In this document: in pieces, positions 1 to 39,650 of the stretch | Numbering within the stretch: the first letter of the stretch is position 1 | Layout: each line of letters begins with the position of its first letter | Sequence record: OR204650.1 | Direction: 5' to 3' (one strand) | DNA: 39,650 bases | From: Escherichia phage pO91 | Notes under the pieces: generated by a model | What the model saw: only the letters and a program-made list of their open reading frames with translations | What the model was told of the DNA's origin: nothing | Databases searched by the model: none | Position numbers and translations under genes: made by a program

Positions 1-50
1 TCTATGAGTCTCTATCTGTATAGTGTTACAGTATAACATTACGTCCTACA

Positions 51-159
51 CCTACAGTCTAACTACCTACAGTCTAACTACCTACAGTCATTGACTCCTG
101 CTGTACCTACAGTCCTACAACCATAAGACGCTCACAGCCTACAGTCATAGACCTACAGT
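51..159. repeat. Left-end array of short direct repeats (CCTACAGT, 6 copies)
   Basis: CCTACAGT at 51, 66, 81, 106, 138 and 152 with irregular spacing; the position matches the short-repeat arrays next to the T7 terminal repeat. Confidence 0.6.
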
Positions 160-270
160 TCATAGACACAAAACTATAGACTTAAGGTCTAATACATGTT
201 AGTCAAAGACTATATCCTCTTACACCATGAGGCCGACGATAGCTCAATCAATATTATTTAAGATTACCTA

Positions 271-299
271 TTGACTATAGGTCTAGACTATGGCTTAAT
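271..299 (+). promoter_or_regulatory. Weak candidate sigma70 promoter (A1-like position)
   Basis: TTGACT at 271-276, 17-nt spacer, CTTAAT at 294-299; the -10 is a poor match to TATAAT. Confidence 0.25.
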
Positions 300-411
300 A
301 GCTTCCGTCAACACGACACGGCAACAACCGGATAGTGAAGACGCCGGGTCATCCCGGTTAAGTAGACAGCCTGATAAGTCATACGAACAACAGGCAGATG
401 ACAGAAAGTAG

Positions 412-441
412 TTGACAAGATGTACCGACTTAACGTAGTAT
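412..441 (+). promoter_or_regulatory. Host sigma70 early promoter (T7 A3-like)
   Basis: TTGACA at 412-417, 18-nt spacer, TAGTAT at 436-441; flanking sequence closely resembles the T7 A2/A3 promoter region. Confidence 0.6.
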
Positions 442-499
442 GTACCACATCGAAACAACGGTGATGACCAACACTGAAATGGTCTACCTGAAGTCCTCT

Positions 500-600
500 G
501 ACTGAAGGGAATGCTCTTTAACAATCTGGATAAACTCTTAATGTGCGCCGATAGCTAGCTTGCTAGCGATAGCGACTAACTACAGGGTCTTTAAGTCTAC
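500..600 (+). promoter_or_regulatory. Putative RNA processing region upstream of gene 0.3 (R0.3-like)
   Basis: GCTCTTTAACAATCTGG at 513-529 matches the T7 leader at the R0.3 RNase III site; adjacent GCTAGC-TT-GCTAGC palindrome. Confidence 0.3.
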
Positions 601-648
601 ATCTGAAGGCTCTGAATGATAGTCACTAACAACTGAGAGGATATAACT

Positions 649-1155
649 ATGGAACGTAACGCTAACGCATACTATGAACTGCTGGCTGCAACCGTTGAGG
701 CATTTAACGAGCGTATTCAGTATGACGAAATAGCTGAAGGTGACGACTACAGCGATGCACTGCATGAAGTCGTAGACGGTCAGGTTCCGCACTATTATCA
801 CGAGATTTTCACGGTGATGGCTGCTGATGGTATATACCACGAGTTTGAGGACTCTGGGCTGATGCCTGATACCAAGGACGTAACGCGCATACTGCAAGCC
901 CGCATCTATGAGGCGCTATATAACGACGTGTCTAATAGCTCGGATGTAGTTTGGTTTGAGGCTGAAGAGAGCGACGAAGAGGATGAGTATTGGGTAGTTG
1001 ACGCTAAAACAGGCGCAATAATTGAGCAAGCTGTATCACTTAACGACGCTATTGCACGTGCCAAAGACCTCTATGGGGTGGGGCATCACATGAAAGTCGA
1101 AGACATCAACGATAACGTAGTGTTCGACCCTGCTACTGAAGAGGACTGCGAGTGA
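649..1155 (+). CDS. ocr: Ocr-like DNA-mimic anti-restriction protein (T7 gene 0.3 homolog) with C-terminal extension
   Basis: First ~100 aa align with recalled T7 Ocr ([34 protein letters not shown]); acidic; GAGAGGA RBS; first phage gene after the early promoter; 168 aa versus 117 aa in T7. Confidence 0.85.
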
Positions 1156-1310
1156 TGGTAACTTATGGTCTCTGTCAACAACACGTCAACACCGCCCGGA
1201 TTATGGTCAAGACCGGGCAATTAAACCATGATGCGACTATGCGATACCTGAAAGCGGTCTATGAGGGCCGCAAGCGTATACACGACAGTTTGCACGCTGA
1301 GGATAAACAA
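1155..1310 (+). CDS. Hypothetical early protein (51 aa)
   Basis: ATG overlaps the ocr stop (TGATG); ends with TGA 2 nt before the next ATG; not in the ORF track (under 60 aa). Confidence 0.4.
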
Positions 1311-1312
1311 CA

Positions 1313-1465
1313 ATGAAAATGTATAATGTGGTAGTGGTGAACAATAAAACAGGCGTTAAAGTGGTCATAAATGATTCACCGTTAACCCATTCAGAAGGCT
1401 GCGCTATGTTAGCTAAACTGACCAAATACGCCTGGAGAACCGAAAAATTAGAGCAAATCGGTTGA
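1313..1465 (+). CDS. Hypothetical early protein (50 aa)
   Basis: GAGGA RBS 8 nt upstream of ATG at 1313; hand-translated MKMYNVVVVNNKTGVKVVINDSPLTHSEGCAMLAKLTKYAWRTEKLEQIG. Confidence 0.45.
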   Translation: MKMYNVVVVNNKTGVKVVINDSPLTHSEGCAMLAKLTKYAWRTEKLEQIG

Positions 1466-1581
1466 CTTTCTGTAACCAAGATGACTACCGTAGCGGTAGA
1501 AGTGTAGGAGAGTGATAGACGAGAGGTCATCGACTGATAGGTGGCCTCAAAGATTACCACTTGCATTAATAGGAGCTAACT

Positions 1582-1668
1582 ATGAGTATTGGACATTTGG
1601 TATGCTTATCTCCGGTCATCTTTCTGATAGCTTGGGGGATATACGATTGTATTAAACGGAAATCACCA
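1582..1668 (+). CDS. Hypothetical small hydrophobic peptide (28 aa)
   Basis: AGGAG RBS at 1571-1575; ATG at 1582; stop overlaps the next start (ATGA); MSIGHLVCLSPVIFLIAWGIYDCIKRKSP. Confidence 0.3.
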
Positions 1669-1865
1669 TGAGTAGCGCACTATTGATAGCCATAGGCTAT
1701 GGACTTATCGCCTACGTGCTGGCGAAAGACATCAACAAAGCGCGTAAAGTCTACAAATTCAACTATGTACGTCTGGGCCGCTGGACTGTACGCCAACCTA
1801 ACGGACGATTCATGTGCAACCTCGCGAACGTCTGGGATATAGCAACCTTAGGGAGTAAACTGTAA
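1668..1865 (+). CDS. Hypothetical early protein with N-terminal hydrophobic helix (65 aa)
   Basis: ORF track; start coupled to the upstream ORF stop; N-terminus LLIAIGYGLIAYVLA looks like a transmembrane segment. Confidence 0.5.
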   Translation: MSSALLIAIGYGLIAYVLAKDINKARKVYKFNYVRLGRWTVRQPNGRFMCNLANVWDIATLGSKL

Positions 1866-2125
1866 TGAAAACCGTATACACTCACAAATCATCAAGCCGT
1901 AGCCGCATGGAGCAGGTCCAGCGCGATATGTTCTTACAGCGCCGCATGAGAGCAGAAGGCCATAAGTCCGAGCTGATGTGTCTGGCGTATGGTGGACGAC
2001 CAATCACCGACGATGGTAAACTTCTGGTCTCAGGCTGGAAGGCGATAGACCAACGGTCAACCATCAAGCACACGACTCATGGTGACTTCAGTCATCTTCA
2101 CGCTAACCCACTGATATGCAAGTAA
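1865..2125 (+). CDS. Hypothetical early protein (86 aa)
   Basis: ORF track; ATG overlaps the previous stop (TAATG); basic, no recognisable motif. Confidence 0.5.
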   Translation: MKTVYTHKSSSRSRMEQVQRDMFLQRRMRAEGHKSELMCLAYGGRPITDDGKLLVSGWKAIDQRSTIKHTTHGDFSHLHANPLICK

Positions 2126-2130
2126 TTCTG

Positions 2131-2153
2131 ACTTAACTATCACTATAGGACTC
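2131..2153 (+). promoter_or_regulatory. Phage RNAP promoter-like site upstream of the RNA polymerase gene
   Basis: ACTTAACTATCACTATAGGACTC; matches the window consensus except -14 T and +3 A; followed by GACTCAAGGTC and a GGTCT/AGACC hairpin. Confidence 0.5.
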
Positions 2154-2222
2154 AAGGTCTAAGACTCCAAGTGAAAGACCAAATAGACTTTAAGTGAAAG
2201 ACTAATAACAAGGACTTTAAGT

Positions 2223-4904
2223 ATGAGCGTCATCTCTATTGATAAACAGGACTTCTCTGATGTGTCGAACGCCATTGAGCCGTTTAACCTGCTGGCTGAC
2301 CATTATGGGCAAGACCTTGCAGTCAAGCAGCTTCAGCTTGAGCATGAGGCATACACTGAAGGCGAGCGACGTTTCATCAAGAACCTTGAGCGCCAGACTG
2401 AGCGCGGGGAACTGGCAGACAATCAGGTCGCCAAGCCTTTGATGCAGACTCTGGTCCCTAAGATTGCGCAAGCAGTCAAGGAGTGGCACGAAGGCCAAGA
2501 CGGGAAGCTGTCAACCTCTCGTCCGAGCGTAGCGTTCACCATGTTGAGCACTGAAGAGAAGGCCGTAAAGGACCGCTCTCTGCGCATCTCCTGTGAGTCT
2601 GCTGCGGTTATCATACTGAAGGTCATCCTCTCCAAGTTGGTCAAGCCTGAAGGGATACCGATTACACCGATGGCCTCCGCGATAGGTCGCACACTTGAGG
2701 ATGAAATCCGCTTCGGTCGAATCAGAGACAAGGAGCAGGAGCACTTCAAGAAGGCGATAGCTGAGAACCTGAACAAGCGAGCTGGGGTATCCTATAAGAA
2801 AGCCTACATGCAAGCGGTTGAGGCCTCCATGCTGGAGCAAGGCCAACTGGAAGATGCGTGGGGGACTTGGAGTCCTACCGAGTCGGTACACGTTGGCATC
2901 AAGATGCTTGAGATTGTCATCCAGTCTACACAACTGGTCGAGCTTAAGCGTTATGGTGCTGGTAATGTAGCGGCTGATGTCGAGATGGTCCATCTGTCAG
3001 AATTCTGGGTCAAGAAGATGGCACAACGTGGCTTCAACCTTGCGGGTATCGCGCCAGTCTATCAACCTTGCGTAGTTCCACCAAAGCCGTGGACTGGAGT
3101 CGTAGGCGGTGGTTACTGGGCTAAAGGTCGCAGACCGTTACCATTGATTCGCTTAGGGTCTAAGTCTGCGGTAGCACGTTACGAAGACGTGTACATGCCT
3201 GAAGTCTATGACGCTGTGAACATCATCCAGAATACACCTTGGAAAGTTAACAAGAAGGTTCTGGACGTGGTGAACATGGTCGAGAAGCTGAACAACACGC
3301 CTATTGATGACATCCCTCAGATGGAACCACTGAAGCCTGAGGACTATGCTGGTGAGACCGAGGAGGAACTCAAGGCATGGAAGAAGGCTGCTGCTGGTAT
3401 CTATCGCCGCGAGAAGGCCCGACAGTCACGCAGGTTGTCACTGAGCTTTATCGTTAACCAAGCGAACAAGTTCTCTCAGTTCAAGGCCATCTGGTTCCCG
3501 TACAACATGGACTGGCGCGGTCGCGTCTACGCTGTCCCGATGTTCAACCCTCAGGGTAACGACATGCAGAAGGGTCTCCTGACTCTGGCAGTCGGCAAGC
3601 CTATTGGTGCTGGCGGTTTCAAATGGCTAAAGGTACACGGGGCAAACTGCGCGGGTGTCGATAAAGTAACATTTGAGGAGCGCATAAAGTGGGTGGAGGA
3701 CAACCACGACAACATCATGGCTGCTGCTAAGGAACCTATGGATAGCATTGAGTGGTGGGGCAAGTTAGACTCTCCGTTCTGCTTCCTAGCGTTCTGCTTC
3801 GAGTATGCTGGCGTAATGCACCACGGCTTGTCTTACAACTGCTCGCTGCCGATAGCGTTCGATGGGTCCTGCTCTGGGATTCAGCACTTCAGCGCGATGC
3901 TTCGTGACCACATCGGTGGACATGCAGTAAACCTAACGCCATCAGGTAAGGTCCAAGACATCTACCGCATTGTGTCTGACCGCATCGAGGAGGAGCTTAA
4001 AGTCCTGCTTGTTAGCGGTACGGACAACGAGATGGTAACTCACGAGGACAAGAAAACTGGTGAGATTACCGAGCGCCTCAAGCTGGGGACACGAGAGCTG
4101 GCCCGTCAGTGGCTGACCTACGGTATGTCACGCAAGGTCACTAAGCGTTCGGTCATGACTCTAGCCTACGGGTCGAAAGAGTACGGCTTCGCAGACCAAG
4201 TTTACGAGGACATCGTGATGCCAGCGATTGACTCAGGGTCTGGCGCTATGTTCACCGAACCCAGCCAAGCGTCTCGCTTCATGGCTAAGATGATTTGGGA
4301 AGCTGTGAGTGTGACCGTAGTTGCTGCGGTTGACGCGATGAAATGGCTTCAAGGTGCCGCCAAGCTGCTGGCTGCTGAAGTGAAGGACAAGAAGACTGGC
4401 GAAATCCTGAAGCCATGCCTTCCGGTACACTGGGTCACTCCTGATGGTTTCCCGGTCTGGCAGGAATACCGCAAGAAGGATACCACACGTTTGAACCTGA
4501 TGTTCTTAGGATCATTCAACCTTCAGCCTACAGTCAACAAAGGAACGAAGAAAGAGCTGGACAAGCACAAGCAGGAGTCAGGCATTAGCCCGAACTTCGT
4601 CCACTCACAAGATGGTAGTCACCTCCGCAAGACTGTAGTCCACACGCACCGCAAGTACGGTGTGATGTCATTCGCAGTTATCCACGATAGCTTTGGGACC
4701 ATCCCGGCTGACGCTGAGTATCTGTTCCGTGGTGTCCGTGAGACGATGGTCGAGACCTACCGCGATAACGATGTGCTGCTTGACTTCTACGAGCAGTTCG
4801 AATACCAGCTTCACGAGAGTCAGCGCGACAAGTTGCCTGAGCTTCCGAAGAAAGGTAAACTGAATATCGAAGACATCTTGTCTTCAGACTTTGCATTCGC
4901 TTAA
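2223..4904 (+). CDS. Single-subunit DNA-directed RNA polymerase (T7 gene 1 homolog)
   Basis: 893 aa, collinear with recalled T7 RNAP over the full length (PFN.LADHYG, FPYNMDWRGRVYA, SPFCFLAFCFEY, GSCSGIQHFSAML, HDSFGT, C-terminal FAFA). Confidence 0.97.
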   Translation: MSVISIDKQDFSDVSNAIEPFNLLADHYGQDLAVKQLQLEHEAYTEGERRFIKNLERQTERGELADNQVAKPLMQTLVPKIAQAVKEWHEGQDGKLSTSRPSVAFTMLSTEEKAVKDRSLRISCESAAVIILKVILSKLVKPEGIPITPMASAIGRTLEDEIRFGRIRDKEQEHFKKAIAENLNKRAGVSYKKAYMQAVEASMLEQGQLEDAWGTWSPTESVHVGIKMLEIVIQSTQLVELKRYGAGNVAADVEMVHLSEFWVKKMAQRGFNLAGIAPVYQPCVVPPKPWTGVVGGGYWAKGRRPLPLIRLGSKSAVARYEDVYMPEVYDAVNIIQNTPWKVNKKVLDVVNMVEKLNNTPIDDIPQMEPLKPEDYAGETEEELKAWKKAAAGIYRREKARQSRRLSLSFIVNQANKFSQFKAIWFPYNMDWRGRVYAVPMFNPQGNDMQKGLLTLAVGKPIGAGGFKWLKVHGANCAGVDKVTFEERIKWVEDNHDNIMAAAKEPMDSIEWWGKLDSPFCFLAFCFEYAGVMHHGLSYNCSLPIAFDGSCSGIQHFSAMLRDHIGGHAVNLTPSGKVQDIYRIVSDRIEEELKVLLVSGTDNEMVTHEDKKTGEITERLKLGTRELARQWLTYGMSRKVTKRSVMTLAYGSKEYGFADQVYEDIVMPAIDSGSGAMFTEPSQASRFMAKMIWEAVSVTVVAAVDAMKWLQGAAKLLAAEVKDKKTGEILKPCLPVHWVTPDGFPVWQEYRKKDTTRLNLMFLGSFNLQPTVNKGTKKELDKHKQESGISPNFVHSQDGSHLRKTVVHTHRKYGVMSFAVIHDSFGTIPADAEYLFRGVRETMVETYRDNDVLLDFYEQFEYQLHESQRDKLPELPKKGKLNIEDILSSDFAFA

Positions 4905-4920
4905 CAGGAGAGAGAGAGTT

Positions 4921-5136
4921 ATGAAATTTGCACACAAGCAGGCTGGCGTTAAGGGCGGGACTCAAATCGTGACCGTAACAGAACACAACGGCAAGGGTCT
5001 GGTGAAGACCACGGTCATTCCTACCGAAATGTCAAAGCAGCTTAACGTCCCATTCAAGACCCTCGTCTATCTTGTGGAATCCAGCCACGAGAAATACCTG
5101 AAAGACGCAGTGTCCAAGCTGGAGCAGACCAAATGA
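4921..5136 (+). CDS. Hypothetical protein (71 aa) between gene 1 and gene 1.1
   Basis: AGGAGAGAGAGAG RBS then ATG at 4921; the track ORF starts 30 nt upstream, but this ATG has the RBS. Confidence 0.5.
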   Translation: MKFAHKQAGVKGGTQIVTVTEHNGKGLVKTTVIPTEMSKQLNVPFKTLVYLVESSHEKYLKDAVSKLEQTK

Positions 5137-5210
5137 CAGACCTACAGTTACTGGCCTTGTGGCTGGGAGCACTCGCAGTATTCACTTTAATACAACGCAG
5201 AAGAGGTTAA

Positions 5211-5233
5211 CCTAAACTATCACTATAGGATTA
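5211..5233 (+). promoter_or_regulatory. Phage RNAP promoter (phi1.1-like)
   Basis: CCTAAACTATCACTATAGGATTA; -16 to +2 match the window consensus. Confidence 0.75.
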
Positions 5234-5276
5234 GACTCAAGGTCATGACTCAAAGTCGTGGCCTTCATGATTAACC
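5231..5276 (+). promoter_or_regulatory. Conserved hairpin element, copy 1 (putative RNase III site, R1.1-like position)
   Basis: TTAGACTCAAGGTCA...TGGCCTTCATGATTAAC; 7-bp stem AAGGTCA/TGGCCTT (one G-U) at 5239-5245 and 5259-5265; same element at 12379 and 35600. Confidence 0.5.
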
Positions 5277-5306
5277 CTAAATAAACACTACTGGAGATTT
5301 AACCAC

Positions 5307-5486
5307 ATGTATCAGAACACTATCAACTTCGAGCGCATCCGTGAACGTCAGCAGACTGAAGATTACATTCCGAAGGGCCGCAAGCTGAACAAGACCAAGC
5401 GTGGCGGTGGTGTCAAGGGTGCTTTCCGTAACGCTGAAGGCAAAGACTCTCTGGTCAACCAAGAGAAATACTTCGTAGGAGCATAA
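5307..5486 (+). CDS. Gene 1.1-like small basic protein (59 aa)
   Basis: GGAG RBS; contains GRKLNKTKR as in recalled T7 gp1.1; under 60 aa so absent from the ORF track; the overlapping minus-strand track ORF is discounted. Confidence 0.7.
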   Translation: MYQNTINFERIRERQQTEDYIPKGRKLNKTKRGGGVKGAFRNAEGKDSLVNQEKYFVGA

Positions 5487-5490
5487 CGCT

Positions 5491-5754
5491 ATGGGCCGAC
5501 TTTATAGTGGCAACCTAAACGCTTTCAAAGCAGCGTGTAACAGGCTCTATCAGTTAGACTTCGCTGTCATATCTCAAGAGTTTCAAGACCATGTGTCACG
5601 CCAAGAGTGCATGAAACTCAGGGTGGAGGACCGAACTGGTAACATCTTCTCGCTTGAGTCCTTCGCACATTACGATGAAGACGTGCTGTATAATACTGCA
5701 ACCAACTACCTAAACGGTATCGCTGACCAACTCGACACATGGAGCAAAGCATAA
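5491..5754 (+). CDS. Gene 1.2 homolog (inhibitor of host dGTP triphosphohydrolase)
   Basis: MGRLYSGNLNAFKAA...L.VEDRTGN...HYDEDVLYN nearly collinear with recalled T7 gp1.2. Confidence 0.9.
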   Translation: MGRLYSGNLNAFKAACNRLYQLDFAVISQEFQDHVSRQECMKLRVEDRTGNIFSLESFAHYDEDVLYNTATNYLNGIADQLDTWSKA

Positions 5755-6794
5755 TGACAACTATCAAAACCAACCCACACCGCGCTGTAGATTACTCTGA
5801 GTCTGGCATTAAGAAGGCACTGGAAGCAGCAGGGTCTCTGGAAGCTGAAGTGAAGTACGACGGTGTGCGGCTAAACCTCATGGTACTGCGTGAAGGTGAG
5901 ACCTACTGGCTGAGCCGTGAGTCGAAACCTCTGCCCGCCTTGGAGTGGATGAACTCTGAGCTAGGAAATGCGTGGACCCAAGCTGAATGGCGATGGTTCC
6001 TGCGTCAAGCTGGTTATGAAGGTATTGGCTTAATGATTGACGGCGAAGTCATGATCAAAGGTGTGGACTTCAACACCTCCTCAGGTATCATCCGAACGAA
6101 GTGGCTCAAGCCTAACAACGAGGAGTTCGCTGAATACTATCCGACGGGCACTGGAAAGAAGCTCCCGTTCTGGGGTGCCCGGTCACGACTTCAGGTTGTG
6201 GTCTACGGTGTCATCGACATGACAATCATTGCTGATCCGAAAGCCGAAGGTCCTATCCATAGCGTCACTCGCCTGAAGGCAGAAGCTATCGTCCCTCTCC
6301 TCCAGAAATACTTCCCGGAAATCGACTGGGTTCTGTCTGAGTCACACACGGTCTATGACCTTGAGTCGCTCAACTCCCTGTACGAAGAGAAGCGTCTGGA
6401 AGGACATGAGGGTCTGGTAGTCAAGGACCCACTTGGTAAATACAAGCGCGGCAAGAAGTCAGGCATGTGGAAAATGAAGCCGGAGGACACCATTGATGGT
6501 ATTGTGGTCGGACTGAATTGGGGGACTGAAGGTCTCGCCAACGAAGGTAAGGTGATTGGGTTCGACGTTCTGCTTGAGAATGGCATGGTAGTTGCTGCTA
6601 ACAATATCTCTCAGGCTATGATGGATGAGTTCACTGAGGCAGTGCGTCACGCTGAGTCAATTGGCATGGGGATGCCTTACACCAACTTTCAGTGTGAAGT
6701 ATCCTACATGGAGATGACACCAGATGGCTCCTTACGTCACCCTAGCTTCAAGTGCTGGCGCGGGACGGAAGATAACCCGACAATTAAGAGCTAA
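5754..6794 (+). CDS. ATP-dependent DNA ligase (T7 gene 1.3 homolog)
   Basis: Adenylation motif KYDGVR, then EGHEGLVVKDP, YKRGKKSGMWKMKPE, PDGSLRHPSF; ATG at 5754 overlaps the gene 1.2 stop. Confidence 0.95.
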   Translation: MTTIKTNPHRAVDYSESGIKKALEAAGSLEAEVKYDGVRLNLMVLREGETYWLSRESKPLPALEWMNSELGNAWTQAEWRWFLRQAGYEGIGLMIDGEVMIKGVDFNTSSGIIRTKWLKPNNEEFAEYYPTGTGKKLPFWGARSRLQVVVYGVIDMTIIADPKAEGPIHSVTRLKAEAIVPLLQKYFPEIDWVLSESHTVYDLESLNSLYEEKRLEGHEGLVVKDPLGKYKRGKKSGMWKMKPEDTIDGIVVGLNWGTEGLANEGKVIGFDVLLENGMVVAANNISQAMMDEFTEAVRHAESIGMGMPYTNFQCEVSYMEMTPDGSLRHPSFKCWRGTEDNPTIKS

Positions 6795-6805
6795 CTAAAT
6801 GTCAA

Positions 6806-6842
6806 CCCAGTGGTCTTAGGACTGCTGGGTTTCTTTGCTTTG
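6806..6842 (+). terminator. Rho-independent terminator after the ligase gene (T7 TE-like)
   Basis: 10-bp stem CCCAGTGGTC/GACTGCTGGG (two G-U) with TTAG loop, followed by TTTCTTTGCTTT; same position as T7 TE. Confidence 0.7.
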
Positions 6843-6877
6843 TGCTAGCAAGCTATCGTCTTGGCCACCAGCTAGAC

Positions 6878-6900
6878 CCTAAGCTATCACTATAGGACAA
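6878..6900 (+). promoter_or_regulatory. Phage RNAP promoter (variant, -12 G)
   Basis: CCTAAGCTATCACTATAGGACAA. Confidence 0.65.
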
Positions 6901-6924
6901 CCATCAACAACATAAGGAGACGCT

Positions 6925-7185
6925 ATGTCTAAGAACTTAATGTTCAACCGTTATTCCAATACCTTCCACCTGTCCAACAACCCGTTCGCTTGCATTAAAA
7001 GTAACGAGAAACTGGGCTACTTCGGGAAGGCAGTTAAGTTGTCACCTACAGTCTATGCTCTGATTACTCCGGGAAAAGCTGAAGAGGCTCGCCAGAAGCG
7101 TGCGACCGTCGTACCTGTGGTATACACAAAGTGGCCTCGCGTTCGTCTACTCATTGAGTACGTGAAGGAGGTGGTAAATGACTAA
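6925..7185 (+). CDS. Hypothetical protein at the gene 1.6 position
   Basis: ORF track; AGGAGA RBS; assignment by synteny only. Confidence 0.65.
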   Translation: MSKNLMFNRYSNTFHLSNNPFACIKSNEKLGYFGKAVKLSPTVYALITPGKAEEARQKRATVVPVVYTKWPRVRLLIEYVKEVVND

Positions 7186-7513
7186 GCACAAGAAGTGGTG
7201 CCACTCTGACCTTAGCTTCGCTTCGTACGACCGCAGTGCTATTAACAGCATCATCGCCGCGTGTAGTAAAGATGACGGGGTTCGCAAGCCATCTCACTAT
7301 CAGGTCTTTGATGGCGTGGAATCCATTGAGATTATCGCACGGTCAATGACTGTGAGTGAGTTTCGTGGGTTCTGCATGGGGAACGTCCTGAAGTATCGAC
7401 TCCGGGCTGGCAAGAAGTCAGAGCTAGCTACTATGGAGAAGGACCTAAACAAAGCAGCCTTCTATCAGGAGCTGTTCGACCTACATAAAGGTAAGTGCTA
7501 TGCTACCAAGTGA
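7178..7513 (+). CDS. Gene 1.7-like protein (C-terminal domain of T7 nucleotide kinase gp1.7 only)
   Basis: KPSHYQVFDGVESIEIIARSMTVSEFRGFCMGNVLKYRLRAGKKSEL...FYQELF...KCYA aligns with the C-terminal ~75 aa of recalled T7 gp1.7; 111 aa versus 196 in T7. Confidence 0.75.
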   Translation: MTKHKKWCHSDLSFASYDRSAINSIIAACSKDDGVRKPSHYQVFDGVESIEIIARSMTVSEFRGFCMGNVLKYRLRAGKKSELATMEKDLNKAAFYQELFDLHKGKCYATK

Positions 7514-7595
7514 GTGGGCTGAGAGAAAATTTGAGGAGACAGGTAACGTCGATTACCTTCAGCTCTACAACTTATGGAAGGAGCGCGGTTTATGA
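7500..7595 (+). CDS. Possible small ORF (31 aa)
   Basis: ATG overlaps the end of the preceding gene and the stop overlaps the gene 2 start; no other support. Confidence 0.25.
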
Positions 7596-7750
7596 CTGAG
7601 GTTGAGAAGAAATACATCGTGGAGCTTGAGGGTCGCGTTCAGTCCTTCGAGGTTCCGGTGTACGCAAAGTCTCTTGAAGAGGCTACCCTGAAGTCCCAAG
7701 AGTATGAGGACGCTGGGTTTGTGGTCGGACGGATTCGTCCTGAGACCTAA
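7592..7750 (+). CDS. Gene 2 homolog (inhibitor of host RNA polymerase)
   Basis: 52 aa; [15 protein letters not shown]...[10 protein letters not shown] matches recalled T7 gp2 (HSFEVPIYAETLDEA...AGFEVTRVRP). Confidence 0.8.
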
Positions 7751-8507: not shown

Positions 8508-8957
8508 ATGACGCTGAAAGAGAAACTGGAGGCTTACTCTAAGGTTTCTCCTTCGGGATGCTGGGAGTGGCAACGCTCCCGGACTAAAACTGGTTATGGT
8601 CAAATAGCTATAGGTCATCAGAAACAGGACTATTCTCACCGAGTTTCGTACAGGGAGTACAAAGGTCCTATACCTGATGGATTGGTTGTTAGACATAAAT
8701 GTGATAACCCTTGCTGCTGTAACCCTGAGCACCTTGAAGTTGGGACTCAGAAGGACAACATGCAGGACTGCGTGAAGCGGGGACGTCACTCGAAACCGCC
8801 AGTATTCAAAGGAGAAGCTAATCACAAGACTAAGCTGACCGAGGAAGACGTAGCGTTTATCCTGAAGTCCAAGCTGAGGCCTATAGAACTTGCTAAGATG
8901 TTTGGTGTTACTCCGCAAGCTATTAATTGGAGACGCAAGAATGGCAAGAACGATTAG
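8508..8957 (+). CDS. HNH homing-endonuclease-like protein (paralog A1)
   Basis: GPIPDGLVVRHKCDNPCCCNPEHLEVGTQKDN, a Cys/His-rich HNH core; free-standing between the SSB and endonuclease I genes. Confidence 0.85.
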   Translation: MTLKEKLEAYSKVSPSGCWEWQRSRTKTGYGQIAIGHQKQDYSHRVSYREYKGPIPDGLVVRHKCDNPCCCNPEHLEVGTQKDNMQDCVKRGRHSKPPVFKGEANHKTKLTEEDVAFILKSKLRPIELAKMFGVTPQAINWRRKNGKND

Positions 8958-9390: not shown

Positions 9391-9614
9391 TGACTCAAGA
9401 AGTTAAGGTCATTCGTCAGCGTCTGACCATTGATAAAATCCCTGTGGGATATGCGTTTATCGTCCACGGTAAGCCTGGTGAAGTGTACGTGAAGATTAGT
9501 AACTCTCACGTCTTCAACCATAAGTTGCTCCAGATGCACACAACGGATGCTAACCGCTTCCAACGTCATCTGAACCTCGTAGCTGTAGAGCTGGTGGTGT
9601 ACGATGGTGAGTAA
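9390..9614 (+). CDS. Hypothetical protein (74 aa) between endonuclease I and the amidase gene
   Basis: AAGGAG RBS, ATG at 9390; no counterpart at this position in T7. Confidence 0.55.
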   Translation: MTQEVKVIRQRLTIDKIPVGYAFIVHGKPGEVYVKISNSHVFNHKLLQMHTTDANRFQRHLNLVAVELVVYDGE

Positions 9615-10062
9615 GGTTCAGTTCAACCCACGGTCCCGTACTGACGCTATCTTCGTTCACTGTTCGGCTACCAAGCCAGATATGGACATCGGGGTAGAGA
9701 CCATCCGTATGTGGCATAAGCAGCAAGGCTGGCTGGACGTAGGCTACCACTTTATCATCAAGCGTGATGGCACTGTGGAAGAGGGTCGCCAGGTCAATGT
9801 AGTAGGGTCACACGTTAAGGACTGGAACTCACGGTCTGTAGGCGTCTGCCTTGTAGGTGGAATTGACGCTAAGGGCAAGTTTGAAGCTAACTTCACTCCG
9901 GCCCAGATGAACTCCCTGCGCAACAAGCTGGCTGACCTGAAGGCACTGTATCCTCAGGCAGAAATCAAAGCACACCATGACGTAGCACCTAAGGCGTGTC
10001 CAAGTTTCGACCTGCAACGCTGGCTGTCTACCAATGAACTGATCACTTCCGACCACGGTTAA
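9604..10062 (+). CDS. N-acetylmuramoyl-L-alanine amidase / T7 lysozyme homolog (gene 3.5)
   Basis: TDAIFVHCSATKP, WLDVGYHFIIKRDGTVEEGR, GVCLVGG, FTPAQM, HHDVAPKACPSFDL collinear with recalled T7 gp3.5. Confidence 0.95.
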   Translation: MVSKVQFNPRSRTDAIFVHCSATKPDMDIGVETIRMWHKQQGWLDVGYHFIIKRDGTVEEGRQVNVVGSHVKDWNSRSVGVCLVGGIDAKGKFEANFTPAQMNSLRNKLADLKALYPQAEIKAHHDVAPKACPSFDLQRWLSTNELITSDHG

Positions 10063-10086: not shown

Positions 10087-10302
10087 ATGATTAAACTTAT
10101 CGAATTTCTCGGTCGTCTGGTGGTGCGTGGCTATCGTCATGCTGCGGTTCTGGAACGAAAAGTAGAAAAGAAGACTGCTGATGGTGCGGCCGAGGCTGCT
10201 GCTATGGCTGACAAGCTGACCATAGCGTCACTGGAAGCTGGCATGAAGGCACGTCAAGCTGATACCAAAGCTGACCAGTTGGCTCAGTTCTTCAAAGACT
10301 AA
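10087..10302 (+). CDS. Hypothetical protein (71 aa)
   Basis: ORF track; GGAGAA RBS; Ala/Lys-rich; sits where T7 carries gene 3.8, but has no HNH motif. Confidence 0.55.
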   Translation: MIKLIEFLGRLVVRGYRHAAVLERKVEKKTADGAAEAAAMADKLTIASLEAGMKARQADTKADQLAQFFKD

Positions 10303-10320
10303 ACTATCACCTTAGGGATT
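10298..10320 (+). promoter_or_regulatory. Degenerate phage promoter-like site
   Basis: ACTAAACTATCACCTTAGGGATT; upstream half matches the consensus, -4 and -3 are substituted (CT for TA). Confidence 0.35.
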
Positions 10321-16823: not shown

Positions 16824-16884
16824 TTAGGACCTAAGATATGACTATAAGATAGACTTTAGTCTCAACTTAAAGAGGAGATTCAAG

Positions 16885-17157
16885 ATGGCTATTAATGCTA
16901 TTGAAAACGTTGTTAAGCAGTTACAGGAAGAAAGACTTGATGTACCGAACATCTCCCAGTCTGCCATCCAGTTCCTGCACGTATTGTTCAACGCAAGCTA
17001 CGCTGAGAAGATGGGAGCCATTAGTCTCCTCAAGCAGCAGGGATACAGCGATGCGTTCATTGCCGGATTCATCAAGGGTCTCCAGTATTGCTCTGACACT
17101 CTCGACTCTGCAATCGCTATGCGTCGTGAGCTGAAAGATACCGTTCAGTTCGATTAA
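16885..17157 (+). CDS. Hypothetical protein at the gene 6.5 position
   Basis: ORF track; GAGGAGA RBS; assignment by synteny only. Confidence 0.65.
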   Translation: MAINAIENVVKQLQEERLDVPNISQSAIQFLHVLFNASYAEKMGAISLLKQQGYSDAFIAGFIKGLQYCSDTLDSAIAMRRELKDTVQFD

Positions 17158-20640: not shown

Positions 20641-20742
20641 CCAATAGACAGACTAAAGGTTTCCCTATTACTTCAGTCCATACGGATTGGGCATACAGTA
20701 AGTAATAAACTTTATCTTTCAATTGAATAGGAGAATTATCAT

Positions 20743-21786
20743 ATGGCAAACGTTCCGGGTCAGAAAATTGGTACAGACCAAGGTAAAGGCAAATCCAGTT
20801 CCGACGCTCTGGCGTTGTTCCTGAAGGTATTTGCTGGTGAAGTCCTGACCGCATTCACTCGCCGCTCTGTAACTGCTGACAAGCATATTGTCCGTACCAT
20901 TCAGAACGGTAAGTCTGCTCAGTTCCCGGTCATGGGTCGCACCTCTGGTGTGTATCTGGCTCCGGGTGAGCGACTGTCCGATAAGCGTAAAGGTATCAAA
21001 CATACCGAGAAAGTGATTACCATTGATGGTCTGCTGACTGCCGATGTGATGATTTTCGACATTGAAGACGCGATGAACCACTATGACGTGGCTGGCGAGT
21101 ACTCCAACCAGTTGGGCGAAGCTCTGGCTATCGCTGCTGATGGTGCGGTTCTGGCTGAAATGGCTATCCTGTGTAACCTCCCGGCTGCATCCAACGAGAA
21201 TATTGCCGGTCTGGGCACTGCGTCCGTACTTGAAGTAGGCAAGAAAGCTGACCTCAACACCCCGGCTAAACTGGGCGAAGCAATCATCGGTCAACTGACC
21301 ATTGCTCGTGCTAAGCTGACCTCCAACTACGTTCCTGCTGGCGACCGTTACTTCTACACCACGCCGGACAACTACTCTGCAATCCTCGCGGCTCTGATGC
21401 CGAACGCTGCTAACTATGCTGCGCTGATTGACCCAGAGACTGGTAACATACGTAACGTAATGGGCTTCGTGGTTGTTGAAGTTCCACACTTGACTCAGGG
21501 TGGTGCTGGTGAAACTCGTGGTGACGATGGTATCACTATTGCGACTGGTCAGAAGCACGCCTTCCCAGCTACTGCTGCTGGTGATGTTAAAGTTGCTCTG
21601 GACAACGTTGTGGGCCTGTTCTCTCACCGTTCTGCTGTGGGTACTGTTAAGCTGCGTGACTTGGCGCTGGAACGTGACCGTGACGTCGATGCTCAGGGCG
21701 ACCTGATTGTTGGTAAGTACGCTATGGGTCATGGTGGTCTGCGTCCAGAAGCAGCAGGCGCACTGGTTTTCAGCCCAGCGGCGTAA
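20743..21786 (+). CDS. Major capsid protein (T7 gene 10A homolog)
   Basis: GTDQGKG, LALFLKVF.GEVLTAF, KHTEKVITIDGLLTADV, AILAALMPNAANYAALIDPE, VGTVKLRDLALER, AMGHGGLRPEAAGA collinear with recalled T7 gp10A. Confidence 0.98.
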   Translation: MANVPGQKIGTDQGKGKSSSDALALFLKVFAGEVLTAFTRRSVTADKHIVRTIQNGKSAQFPVMGRTSGVYLAPGERLSDKRKGIKHTEKVITIDGLLTADVMIFDIEDAMNHYDVAGEYSNQLGEALAIAADGAVLAEMAILCNLPAASNENIAGLGTASVLEVGKKADLNTPAKLGEAIIGQLTIARAKLTSNYVPAGDRYFYTTPDNYSAILAALMPNAANYAALIDPETGNIRNVMGFVVVEVPHLTQGGAGETRGDDGITIATGQKHAFPATAAGDVKVALDNVVGLFSHRSAVGTVKLRDLALERDRDVDAQGDLIVGKYAMGHGGLRPEAAGALVFSPAA

Positions 21787-25165: not shown

Positions 25166-25188
25166 CCTTAACTATCACTATAGGGACT
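25166..25188 (+). promoter_or_regulatory. Phage RNAP promoter (phi13-like) inside a perfect 10-bp inverted repeat
   Basis: CCTTAACTATCACTATAGGGACT; flanked by GGGCCTATAG (25151-25160) and CTATAGGCCC (25187-25196). Confidence 0.7.
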
Positions 25189-25217
25189 ATAGGCCCTTAA
25201 GGTTATAAGGAGACTTT

Positions 25218-38838: not shown

Positions 38839-38924
38839 GGGGGACCGGGGGGACCTTACTATATGCCGACCAAAAGTTAGCATATATACATATATAAGGT
38901 AGACCTTAAGTCTCCCTATTGTTA

Positions 38925-38943
38925 ACACACACACACACACACA
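38925..38943. repeat. (AC)9 dinucleotide microsatellite
   Basis: ACACACACACACACACACA at 38925-38943; adjacent alternating TA/CA tract at 38879-38897. Confidence 0.9.
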
Positions 38944-39084: not shown

Positions 39085-39243
39085 ATGGCAAAGACCAAAG
39101 CTGTACTTAAAGCTCTGGCGACCAATCGAGCTACATACAGGTTTCTTGCTGCTGTTCTACTTGCTGCTGGCGTTACTGCTGGAAGTCAGTGGGTCGGGTG
39201 GGTCGAGACTCTCGTATGCTCTCTGGTCTCTCAGTGTAATTAA
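39085..39243 (+). CDS. Hypothetical small membrane protein (52 aa) near the right end
   Basis: AGGAGG 10 nt before ATG 39085; hydrophobic core FLAAVLLAAGVTAGS; not in the ORF track (under 60 aa). Confidence 0.4.
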   Translation: MAKTKAVLKALATNRATYRFLAAVLLAAGVTAGSQWVGWVETLVCSLVSQCN

Positions 39244-39404
39244 TGCAATCATGGTAACGCTTCATGAGCGGAAGACCTAAGGTCAGTTCATAGCTGACGC
39301 TACTCTACTGACCTTAGCTACTGTAGTCAAGGACTTTAGGTAACACCTTAATAGAAGCTCACTTAGGGTCATCCTACTTATTGGTCTATCCTAGTGTCGC
39401 CTGA

Positions 39405-39441
39405 CCTACGGTCCTTGACCTACAGTAGCTGCCACCTACAG
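39405..39441. repeat. Right-end copies of the CCTACAGT-family short repeat
   Basis: CCTACGGT at 39405, CCTACAGT at 39418 and 39434; same family as the left-end array. Confidence 0.55.
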
Positions 39442-39478
39442 TCTTCGATTAGTTTTGGACCAAAAGTTTGAGACCACA

Positions 39479-39650
39479 TCTCACAGTTCAAGAACCTCAA
39501 GTCTCCCCCATAGGCCCTCTTTCAGTCCAGACCAAGGATGGCCCTACCTCCAGTCTATCACAAGGTTAGACAGACGGTCAAGACTTCAGGTCAACGATAG
39601 GTCATGACGATAGGTGGTGGTGGAGACGATAGGTTGGGACTATGGGTCTG
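39479..39650. repeat. Terminal-repeat-like region (single collapsed copy; probable physical genome end near 39479)
   Basis: TCTCACAGTTCAAGAACCTCAAGTCTCCCCCATAGG resembles the first bases of the recalled T7 genome; window end joined to window start resembles the recalled end of the T7 terminal repeat. Confidence 0.4.

Follow-up and report, generated by a model that had tools for sequence, protein, structure and literature searches.

The 23 nt at positions 2131-2153 of the DNA analysed here constitute, with a probability that we put at roughly three in four, a class II-type promoter that is functional and serves the RNA polymerase of the phage itself. It stands directly before the gene that encodes this enzyme (gene 1), and the role that we consider most likely for it is to let polymerase synthesis amplify itself. 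The original prediction, that a phage promoter able to give positive feedback precedes gene 1, is well supported at the level of sequence comparison by the membership of the site in the promoter set of the genome, by its conserved position and by its having followed the polymerase through two specificity switches. The window, as we call the whole stretch of DNA that was analysed, is the complete 39,650-bp genome of a K1F-like T7-group phage of the genus Kayfunavirus. The features on which the argument depends are listed in Table 1.

Genome organisation and early region

The segment from 1500 to 5000 showed 93-95% identity to many Escherichia Kayfunavirus records, and the gene layout across the window was T7-like, with ocr, small early ORFs, gene 1, the ligase, gp2, SSB, gp3.5 and the primase-helicase; no gene 0.7 kinase was found in the interval from ocr to gene 1. 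The polymerase encoded by gene 1 was 98.2% identical to the K1F polymerase and its specificity loop was identical. The 86-aa ORF that precedes gene 1 has its stop codon 5 nt ahead of the promoter, and no match to it was found in Pfam. Directly 3' of the SSB gene we observed an HNH endonuclease ORF (8508-8957; Pfam HNH_3 7e-16), which is probably a mobile homing-type insertion.

At the left end, positions 304-639 of EcoDS1 aligned to positions 105-442 of the window at 92% identity. The host promoter annotated at 469-505 in EcoDS1 and the corresponding window sequence (271-307) differed by one base on direct reading, and the second host promoter of the window (412-441) was homologous to the EcoDS1 host promoter at 609-647. 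On the + strand no terminator-like site was detected from 441 to 6300; the first such sites appeared after 6300, and the first convincing one was that at 6804-6831. A duplicated terminal repeat was absent from positions 1-200 and 39230-39650, and base 1 of the window corresponds to EcoDS1 position 166, which falls within the 178-bp terminal repeat of EcoDS1, indicating that the record is a collapsed or offset assembly and does not begin and end at the true virion ends.

Table 1. Features of the window considered in this study, in order of position
Feature	Position	Strand	Remarks
Host sigma-70 early promoter	271-307	+	Counterpart in EcoDS1: first annotated host promoter
Host sigma-70 early promoter, TTGACA / 18-nt spacer / TAGTAT	412-441	+	10/12 matches in consensus scan
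ocr	649-1155		
Upstream small ORF, 86 aa	1865-2125	+	Homologous position in EcoDS1 is gp0.38
Phage RNA polymerase promoter, -17 to +6	2131-2153	+	Predicted start G2148; leftmost of the phage promoters
75-nt 5' leader of the predicted transcript	2148-2222	+	A/T 67-70%, essentially unstructured, iterated AGACTnnAAGTGAAAGAC-type units
Translation initiation cassette AGGACTTTAAGTATG (Shine-Dalgarno, spacer, gene 1 ATG)	2211-2225	+	Identical to the T7 gene 1.1 cassette
Gene 1, single-subunit phage RNA polymerase, 893 aa	2223-4904	+	Pfam RNA_pol 3e-106, RPOL_N 3e-14
Next phage promoter, behind gene 1, homolog of T7 phi1.1A	5211-5233	+	
Hairpin homologous to the T7 R1.1 RNase III site	5239-5265	+	-16.1 kcal/mol, z -3.7; positive control
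Ligase gene	5739-6794		
Early terminator, TE-like	6804-6831	+	12-bp stem then T-run; 3' of the ligase gene
gp2-type host RNA polymerase inhibitor	7574-7750	+	Pfam RNA_pol_inhib 2e-20
gp3.5-type amidase, T7 lysozyme homolog	9604-10062	+	Pfam Amidase_2 1.5e-16

The promoter at 2131-2153 and the promoter set of the genome

The 23-mer that had been proposed as a promoter, ACTTAACTATCACTATAGGACTC, was found exactly at 2131-2153 on the + strand, and the proposed 75-nt spacing to gene 1 was borne out, with the predicted +1 at G2148, which was set by analogy with T7 (the G that follows TATA), and the ATG at 2223. When up to three mismatches were allowed, the 18-mer CTAAACTATCACTATAGG occurred in 11 copies, all of them on the + strand and occupying T7-like positions, against 0.03 copies expected by chance; the 2131 site has one mismatch to this consensus. 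With a weight matrix built from the other ten promoters the site scored 31.4 bits, while these ten scored 25.7-35.2 bits (leave-one-out) and the best non-promoter position in the scan reached 14.6 bits. The core CACTATAGG (-7 to +2, with G at +1 and +2) is exact at 2141-2149.

Six promoters, those at 2131, 5211, 6878, 7746, 19622 and 32834, carry GGA at +1 to +3, whereas the remaining five (10298, 16801, 20618, 25166 and 38816) start with GGGA, a grouping that agrees with the class II/class III split known in T7. The suggestion that the 2131 site may be weak, made because of its deviations from consensus at -14 and +3, was not borne out: a T at -14 is also found in the 25166 promoter and an A at +3 in six of the 11, so that variants shared with other promoters of the same genome do not mark the site as weak.

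Two other members of the set had peculiarities of their own. The promoter-like site at 10298-10320, upstream of the primase-helicase gene, has the core CACCTTAGG instead of CACTATAGG and is probably weak or inactive, and at 25166-25197 a second TATAGG (CACTATAGGGACTATAGG) lies right behind the promoter core, as a partial tandem duplication of the initiation region.

A stretch near the left end, GACTATAGG at 273-281, was considered as a left-end phage promoter (phiOL) and rejected as a current promoter, because most of the positions from -12 to -7 were mismatched on direct reading; it was not among the top weight-matrix positions, and it coincides with the host promoter annotated in EcoDS1. In a K11/KP32-like locus (L043), whose own promoters are of the type AATTAGGTAGCACTATAGG, we found a near-perfect K1F-type 23-mer, AGATAACTATCACTATAGGTCTA, near the left end and 2452 nt upstream of gene 1. 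By eye, the stretch ATTACCTATTGACTATAGGTCTA at 263-285 of the window resembles this 23-mer, with the specificity region lost and the host promoter overlapped, and this left-end K1F-type stretch may be a vestigial or exchanged phiOL.

Conservation and co-variation with the polymerase

Phage promoters were located relative to gene 1 in 80 IMG/VR loci encoding polymerase relatives. A cognate promoter, with its +1 lying 75-102 nt upstream of the gene 1 ATG, was present in all the loci (21/21) with 79-98% polymerase identity, which comprised Kayfunavirus and the Citrobacter phage CR8 (genus Caroctavirus). In contrast, no phage promoter was found within 300 nt before gene 1 in the T7-like, T3-like, K11/KP32-like and other Studiervirinae loci sampled, in which the first internal promoter came just after gene 1; some of the T7-like, T3-like and other relatives had a phiOL-type promoter farther upstream, 600-2800 nt away. 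SP6-type phages were considered as carriers of the same arrangement and rejected, since SP6 has no phage promoter ahead of its polymerase gene. One T3-like locus (L038) had a T3-type promoter, CAATCACCCTCACTAAAGGGAAT, in the early region, 617 nt upstream of gene 1, suggesting that transcription into gene 1 by the phage polymerase may extend beyond Kayfunavirus.

Three lineages with three promoter specificities were distinguished, each promoter being present in 11-12 genome-wide copies. The lineage of the window and K1F combines the promoter CTAAACTATCACTATAGG with the specificity loop RLNLMFLGSFNLQ, that of Ro103C3lw (with L017 and L039) combines TTAAACCCTCACTATAGG with RLDLMFLGTFRLQ, and that of CR8 combines AAGGAAGGTACACTATAGG with RIKLMFMG-VQYR; in all three, the promoter proximal to gene 1 matched the consensus of its own genome. 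Structural and genetic work on the T7 and T3 polymerases has shown that T7 residues N748 and R756 read promoter positions -11/-10 and -9. The specificity loops of the three lineages differed at the equivalents of these two residues, with N-to-D and N-to-R at the N748 and R756 positions in the Ro103C3lw type, and the loop residues co-varied with the bases at -10/-9. Across 23 Kayfunavirus sequences only one of the nine columns of the promoter core (-7 to +2) was variable, as compared with four of five in the adjacent upstream 5-nt spacer.

Because the site tracked the polymerase through two specificity switches and kept its place, it seems to be under selection to be recognised, and we regard this as strong evidence that the phage polymerase would use it. 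It is extremely improbable that the 23-mer matches by chance or is a decaying relic left unused by the polymerase. In favour of such a reading, our search of the accessible literature returned no transcript 5' end and no in vitro transcription for the site in any Kayfunavirus. It is opposed by the chance expectation of 0.03 sites per genome and by a promoter core more conserved than the adjoining spacer, and for practical purposes the co-variation refutes it. New in this analysis are the argument from co-variation and, as described below, the finding that the leader is homologous to the phi1.1B/origin leader of T7; the co-variation data are the first real comparative support for a promoter before gene 1.

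The co-variation and the conservation speak for use of the site by the polymerase, and its selected role may be the amplification of polymerase synthesis, the priming of replication or a boost to downstream genes. The last of these would mean that the promoter is functional and was selected for giving the fast phage polymerase its leftmost point of entry and not for autoregulation of gene 1, in which case it would boost genes 1.05 to 1.3 and beyond, speed transcription-coupled genome entry and replace the missing phiOL. The site is the leftmost of the 11 phage promoters and no phiOL-type site was found near the left end; T7 and T3-like and other relatives have a phage promoter at their left end, 600-2800 nt ahead of gene 1. 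However, the conserved spacing of 75-102 nt to the ATG and the invariant, strong ribosome-binding cassette point to the expression of gene 1, and the 5211 promoter already serves the genes that follow it, so that we consider selection as an entry point to be quite unlikely.

The leader of gene 1 and a proposed RNase III site

Two repeat units of 21 nt (2162-2182 and 2185-2205), 86% identical to each other, make up much of the leader of the predicted transcript. The direct repeats AAGTGAAAGAC that the original prediction had placed at 2170-2180 and 2196-2206 do exist, but their coordinates are 2169-2179 and 2192-2202, which differ from those by 1 and 4 nt. The A/T content of the leader was in the top 0.5% of 60-nt windows. 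The leaders of four other promoters (20695-20754, 38872-38931, 16843-16902 and 5270-5329) were equally A/T-rich, and as five promoter leaders are similar in this respect, A/T-richness is uninformative for singling out an origin. When the folding of the leader was compared with that of shuffled sequences, z was +0.68 for 2148-2240, -0.36 for 2148-2208 and +0.45 for a longer segment, and its 70-nt windows belonged to the weakest-folding 10% within positions 1-7400. The leader ends in an invariant AAGGA ... ATG cassette: from the ribosome-binding site to the ATG (2210-2225), none of the 16 columns was variable across the 23 Kayfunavirus sequences.

Over the whole window, 9-mers similar to GACTTTAAG (one mismatch at most) occurred 40 times, against 9.4 expected, several of them just 3' of phage promoters (near 16820, 25212 and 38902) or near the genome ends. 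AAGTnnAAGAC units, which are related to GACTTTAAG, recur in the CR8 gene 1 leaders and in the T7 phi1.1B leader.

The leader had also been proposed to contain a GGTCT/AGACC hairpin belonging to an R1-like processing site. The hairpin is present at 2156-2180, with an outer stem of only 5 bp (GGUCU/AGACC in the RNA), but the processing site did not survive the analysis, since the sequence folds no better than shuffled ones, and it is very unlikely that the leader (2154-2222) holds an R1-like RNase III site. The first 10 nt behind +3 (ACTCAAGGTC) do agree with positions 5236-5245, the 5' arm of the R1.1-type site; however, when the leader was compared with the arms of the T7 R sites (AAGGTCA ... 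GTGGCCTT), only the 5' arm was shared and the 3' arm GTGGCCTT was absent. The minimum free energy of 2148-2208 was -9.1 kcal/mol (z -0.36), whereas the folding controls gave -20.2 kcal/mol (z -3.1) for T7 R1, -20.1 kcal/mol (z -3.8) for T7 R1.1, -16.1 kcal/mol (z -3.7) for the R1.1 homolog of the window (5230-5290) and -19.0 kcal/mol (z -2.8) for window positions 1505-1565. The alignment of the leader with the region upstream of T7 gene 1 was not significant (score 12 vs 13.1 +/- 2.2), and no Rfam family was detected in positions 1-7500 at E <=1.

An intergenic hairpin at 1508-1564 (core stem 1523-1548; AGGUCAUC...GGUGGCCU) resembles the T7 RNase III sites of the R1/R0.5 type. It appears to be a better candidate than the gene 1 leader for a processing site in the early region.

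Homology of the leader to the T7 phi1.1B leader

Positions 2154-2225 aligned with the T7 leader that runs from phi1.1B to gene 1.1 over about 48 columns, with a score of 40 against 14.7 +/- 2.6 (0/500 shuffles reached it), and within the alignment the 15-mer AGGACTTTAAGTATG, whose last three letters are the start codon, was identical. T7 phi1.1B with its gene 1.1 leader (NC_001604, 5923 to 6009) resembles the window site in being a class II promoter with a homologous A/T-rich leader and the same cassette. It differs from it in standing after gene 1 and driving gene 1.1, whereas the window site stands before gene 1 and would drive the polymerase gene, and the specificity region of the promoter reads CGACT in T7 and CTATC in the window. 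Behind gene 1, the promoter and hairpin at 5211-5265 are a clear homolog of T7 phi1.1A and R1.1, the leader of the 5211 promoter aligning with the T7 phi1.1A leader with a score of 38 against 12.2 +/- 2.2 (0/500 shuffles reached it). No equivalent of phi1.1B was found after gene 1, which is followed by one promoter in the window and by two in T7.

We take the T7 phi1.1B leader to be the A/T-rich part of a primary origin, and the homology of the gene 1 leader to it suggests that the element before gene 1 might also act as an origin. Origins in T7 are defined by a T7 promoter, and phi1.1A and phi1.1B are the primary origins (PMC8373140). The promoter and its A/T-rich leader could accordingly serve as a replication origin like the primary origins of T7, either as their main role or in addition to another. 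The phage polymerase would in that case make short transcripts from which DNA synthesis is primed within the A/T-rich stretch, and gene 1 would be transcribed incidentally or as a further function.

We consider an origin at this place to be possible but unlikely. The homology to the phi1.1B leader, together with the missing phi1.1B equivalent after gene 1, speaks in its favour, as do the high A/T content of the leader and one canonical T7 primase site, TGGTC (- strand, 2177-2181), which is aligned with GGGTC in T7. However, one primase site per 70 nt on two strands is close to chance (roughly 0.5 expected), and this one was not conserved in the L011-type or CR8 leaders. Most of the phi1.1B alignment score is given by the ribosome-binding cassette, which is possibly conserved for translation; moreover, the leader has 67% A/T against 74% in T7, and the leaders of the four other promoters mentioned above are as A/T-rich.

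The same homology allows an evolutionary proposal, namely that the cassette of promoter and leader is the Kayfunavirus counterpart of the T7 phi1.1B/primary-origin module, moved from downstream to upstream of the polymerase gene; we regard this proposal as speculative and improbable. If it were true, a single element would both start DNA replication and self-amplify the polymerase, and the iterated AGACTnnAAGTGAAAGAC units, which are found again, in diverged versions, in CR8 and T7, would be functional, e.g. as an unwinding/priming region or as an operator holding the feedback in check. For the place where replication starts in these phages, homology to the origin leader of T7 offers a testable lead.

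Comparison with known systems

The element has been annotated before. The EcoDS1 record labels the identical 23-mer 'promoter phi' (EU734172, 2244-2266), those of CR44b (NC_023576, 1814-1836) and CR8 (NC_023548, 3356-3378) each carry a 'predicted promoter' in the equivalent position, and K1F has the identical 23-mer in the same place. In EcoDS1, CR44b and CR8 the element has the same position with respect to gene 1 and the same gp0.38-like ORF upstream, the records giving annotation only; CR8 is unlike the window in its promoter specificity and in the 102 nt that separate +1 from the ATG. A Kayfunavirus genome paper of 2026 describes eight CTWAACTATCACTATAGG repeats, one of which is noted as lying at the SPD_007 3' end, the RNA polymerase gene being SPD_008 (PMC13298934).

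In T7, according to the original prediction, gene 1 is transcribed only by the host RNA polymerase. This is correct in so far as no phage promoter adjoins T7 gene 1: the spot just upstream of the gene is occupied by a host promoter, the minor E. coli promoter C (3113 in the T7 record), whereas the window has a phage promoter there. It is not strictly correct, because phiOL, a T7 promoter, is placed by the T7 record at 405, ahead of both A1-A3 and gene 1. Like the window site, phiOL is a phage promoter upstream of gene 1 on the same strand, but it lies 2.8 kb away at the genome end, and it has been treated as weak (PMC6938266).

Outside the closest relatives, a similar case is that of the Pseudomonas phage LUZ100, in which a transcription start was mapped by ONT-cappable-seq at the phi1 promoter directly upstream of the RNAP gene and an explicit positive-feedback model was proposed, the initial polymerase coming from read-through from host promoters (PMC10134795). 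In both phages a phage-specific promoter adjoins the polymerase gene on its upstream side, the start being mapped in LUZ100 and predicted in the window. For LUZ100, where the context is temperate-like, gating of the loop by a MarR-like repressor together with a terminator was proposed, whereas the phage of the window is strictly lytic and neither element was seen in it. A phi-A8 promoter was also predicted upstream of the kinase and RNAP genes of the vibriophage phiA318, 'suggesting autoregulation' (PMC4099482); unlike the phage of the window, phiA318 is SP6/K1E-like and not a member of the Studiervirinae, and its promoter precedes a kinase gene together with the polymerase gene and not the polymerase gene alone.

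Proposed function and significance

The arrangement found in the window is that of a self-promoted RNAP gene, with a cognate promoter upstream on the same strand, no intervening terminator or strong hairpin, and upstream host promoters from which transcription would read through to gene 1. For self-amplification of polymerase synthesis, which we favour as the role of the site, the following course of events can be proposed. Early in infection, the host RNA polymerase would start at the sigma-70 promoters near 271 and 412 and run through the early genes and gene 1 up to the TE-like terminator; as the stretch from the host promoters to gene 1 has no terminator-like site, the host enzyme would make the first gene 1 mRNA, as in T7. 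The first molecules of phage polymerase would then presumably initiate at G2148, producing a transcript whose 75-nt leader is A/T-rich and unstructured and ends in a strong ribosome-binding cassette. The start at a phage promoter, the unstructured leader and the invariant cassette together suggest a positive-feedback loop on the polymerase. Polymerase synthesis could in this manner persist after gp2 shuts off host transcription, gene 1 being transcribed thereafter from phage promoters only.

Against such a loop it can be said that synthetic T7 'autogenes' are hard to maintain, suggesting that an unrestrained loop might be harmful. By analogy with T7 (PMC6938266), the gp3.5 homolog is the likely brake on the loop; this lysozyme homolog would inhibit the phage polymerase and probably damp the site later in infection, as with the other GGA-initiating promoters. 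T7 lysozyme preferentially lowers the use of class II promoters (PMC6938266).

The K1F polymerase and K1F promoters drive orthogonal expression in vivo (PMC12218169; see also PMC11880802), and the presence of a promoter before the polymerase gene is relevant to K1F polymerase/promoter pairs as orthogonal expression parts, as well as to the engineering of therapeutic K1F-like phages. In biological terms, such a promoter is a modest variation, already known at least as annotation. In textbook accounts of T7, gene 1 is purely early and host-transcribed; a promoter before gene 1 would depart from that scheme and would explain how K1F-type phages can go on making polymerase once the host enzyme is off.
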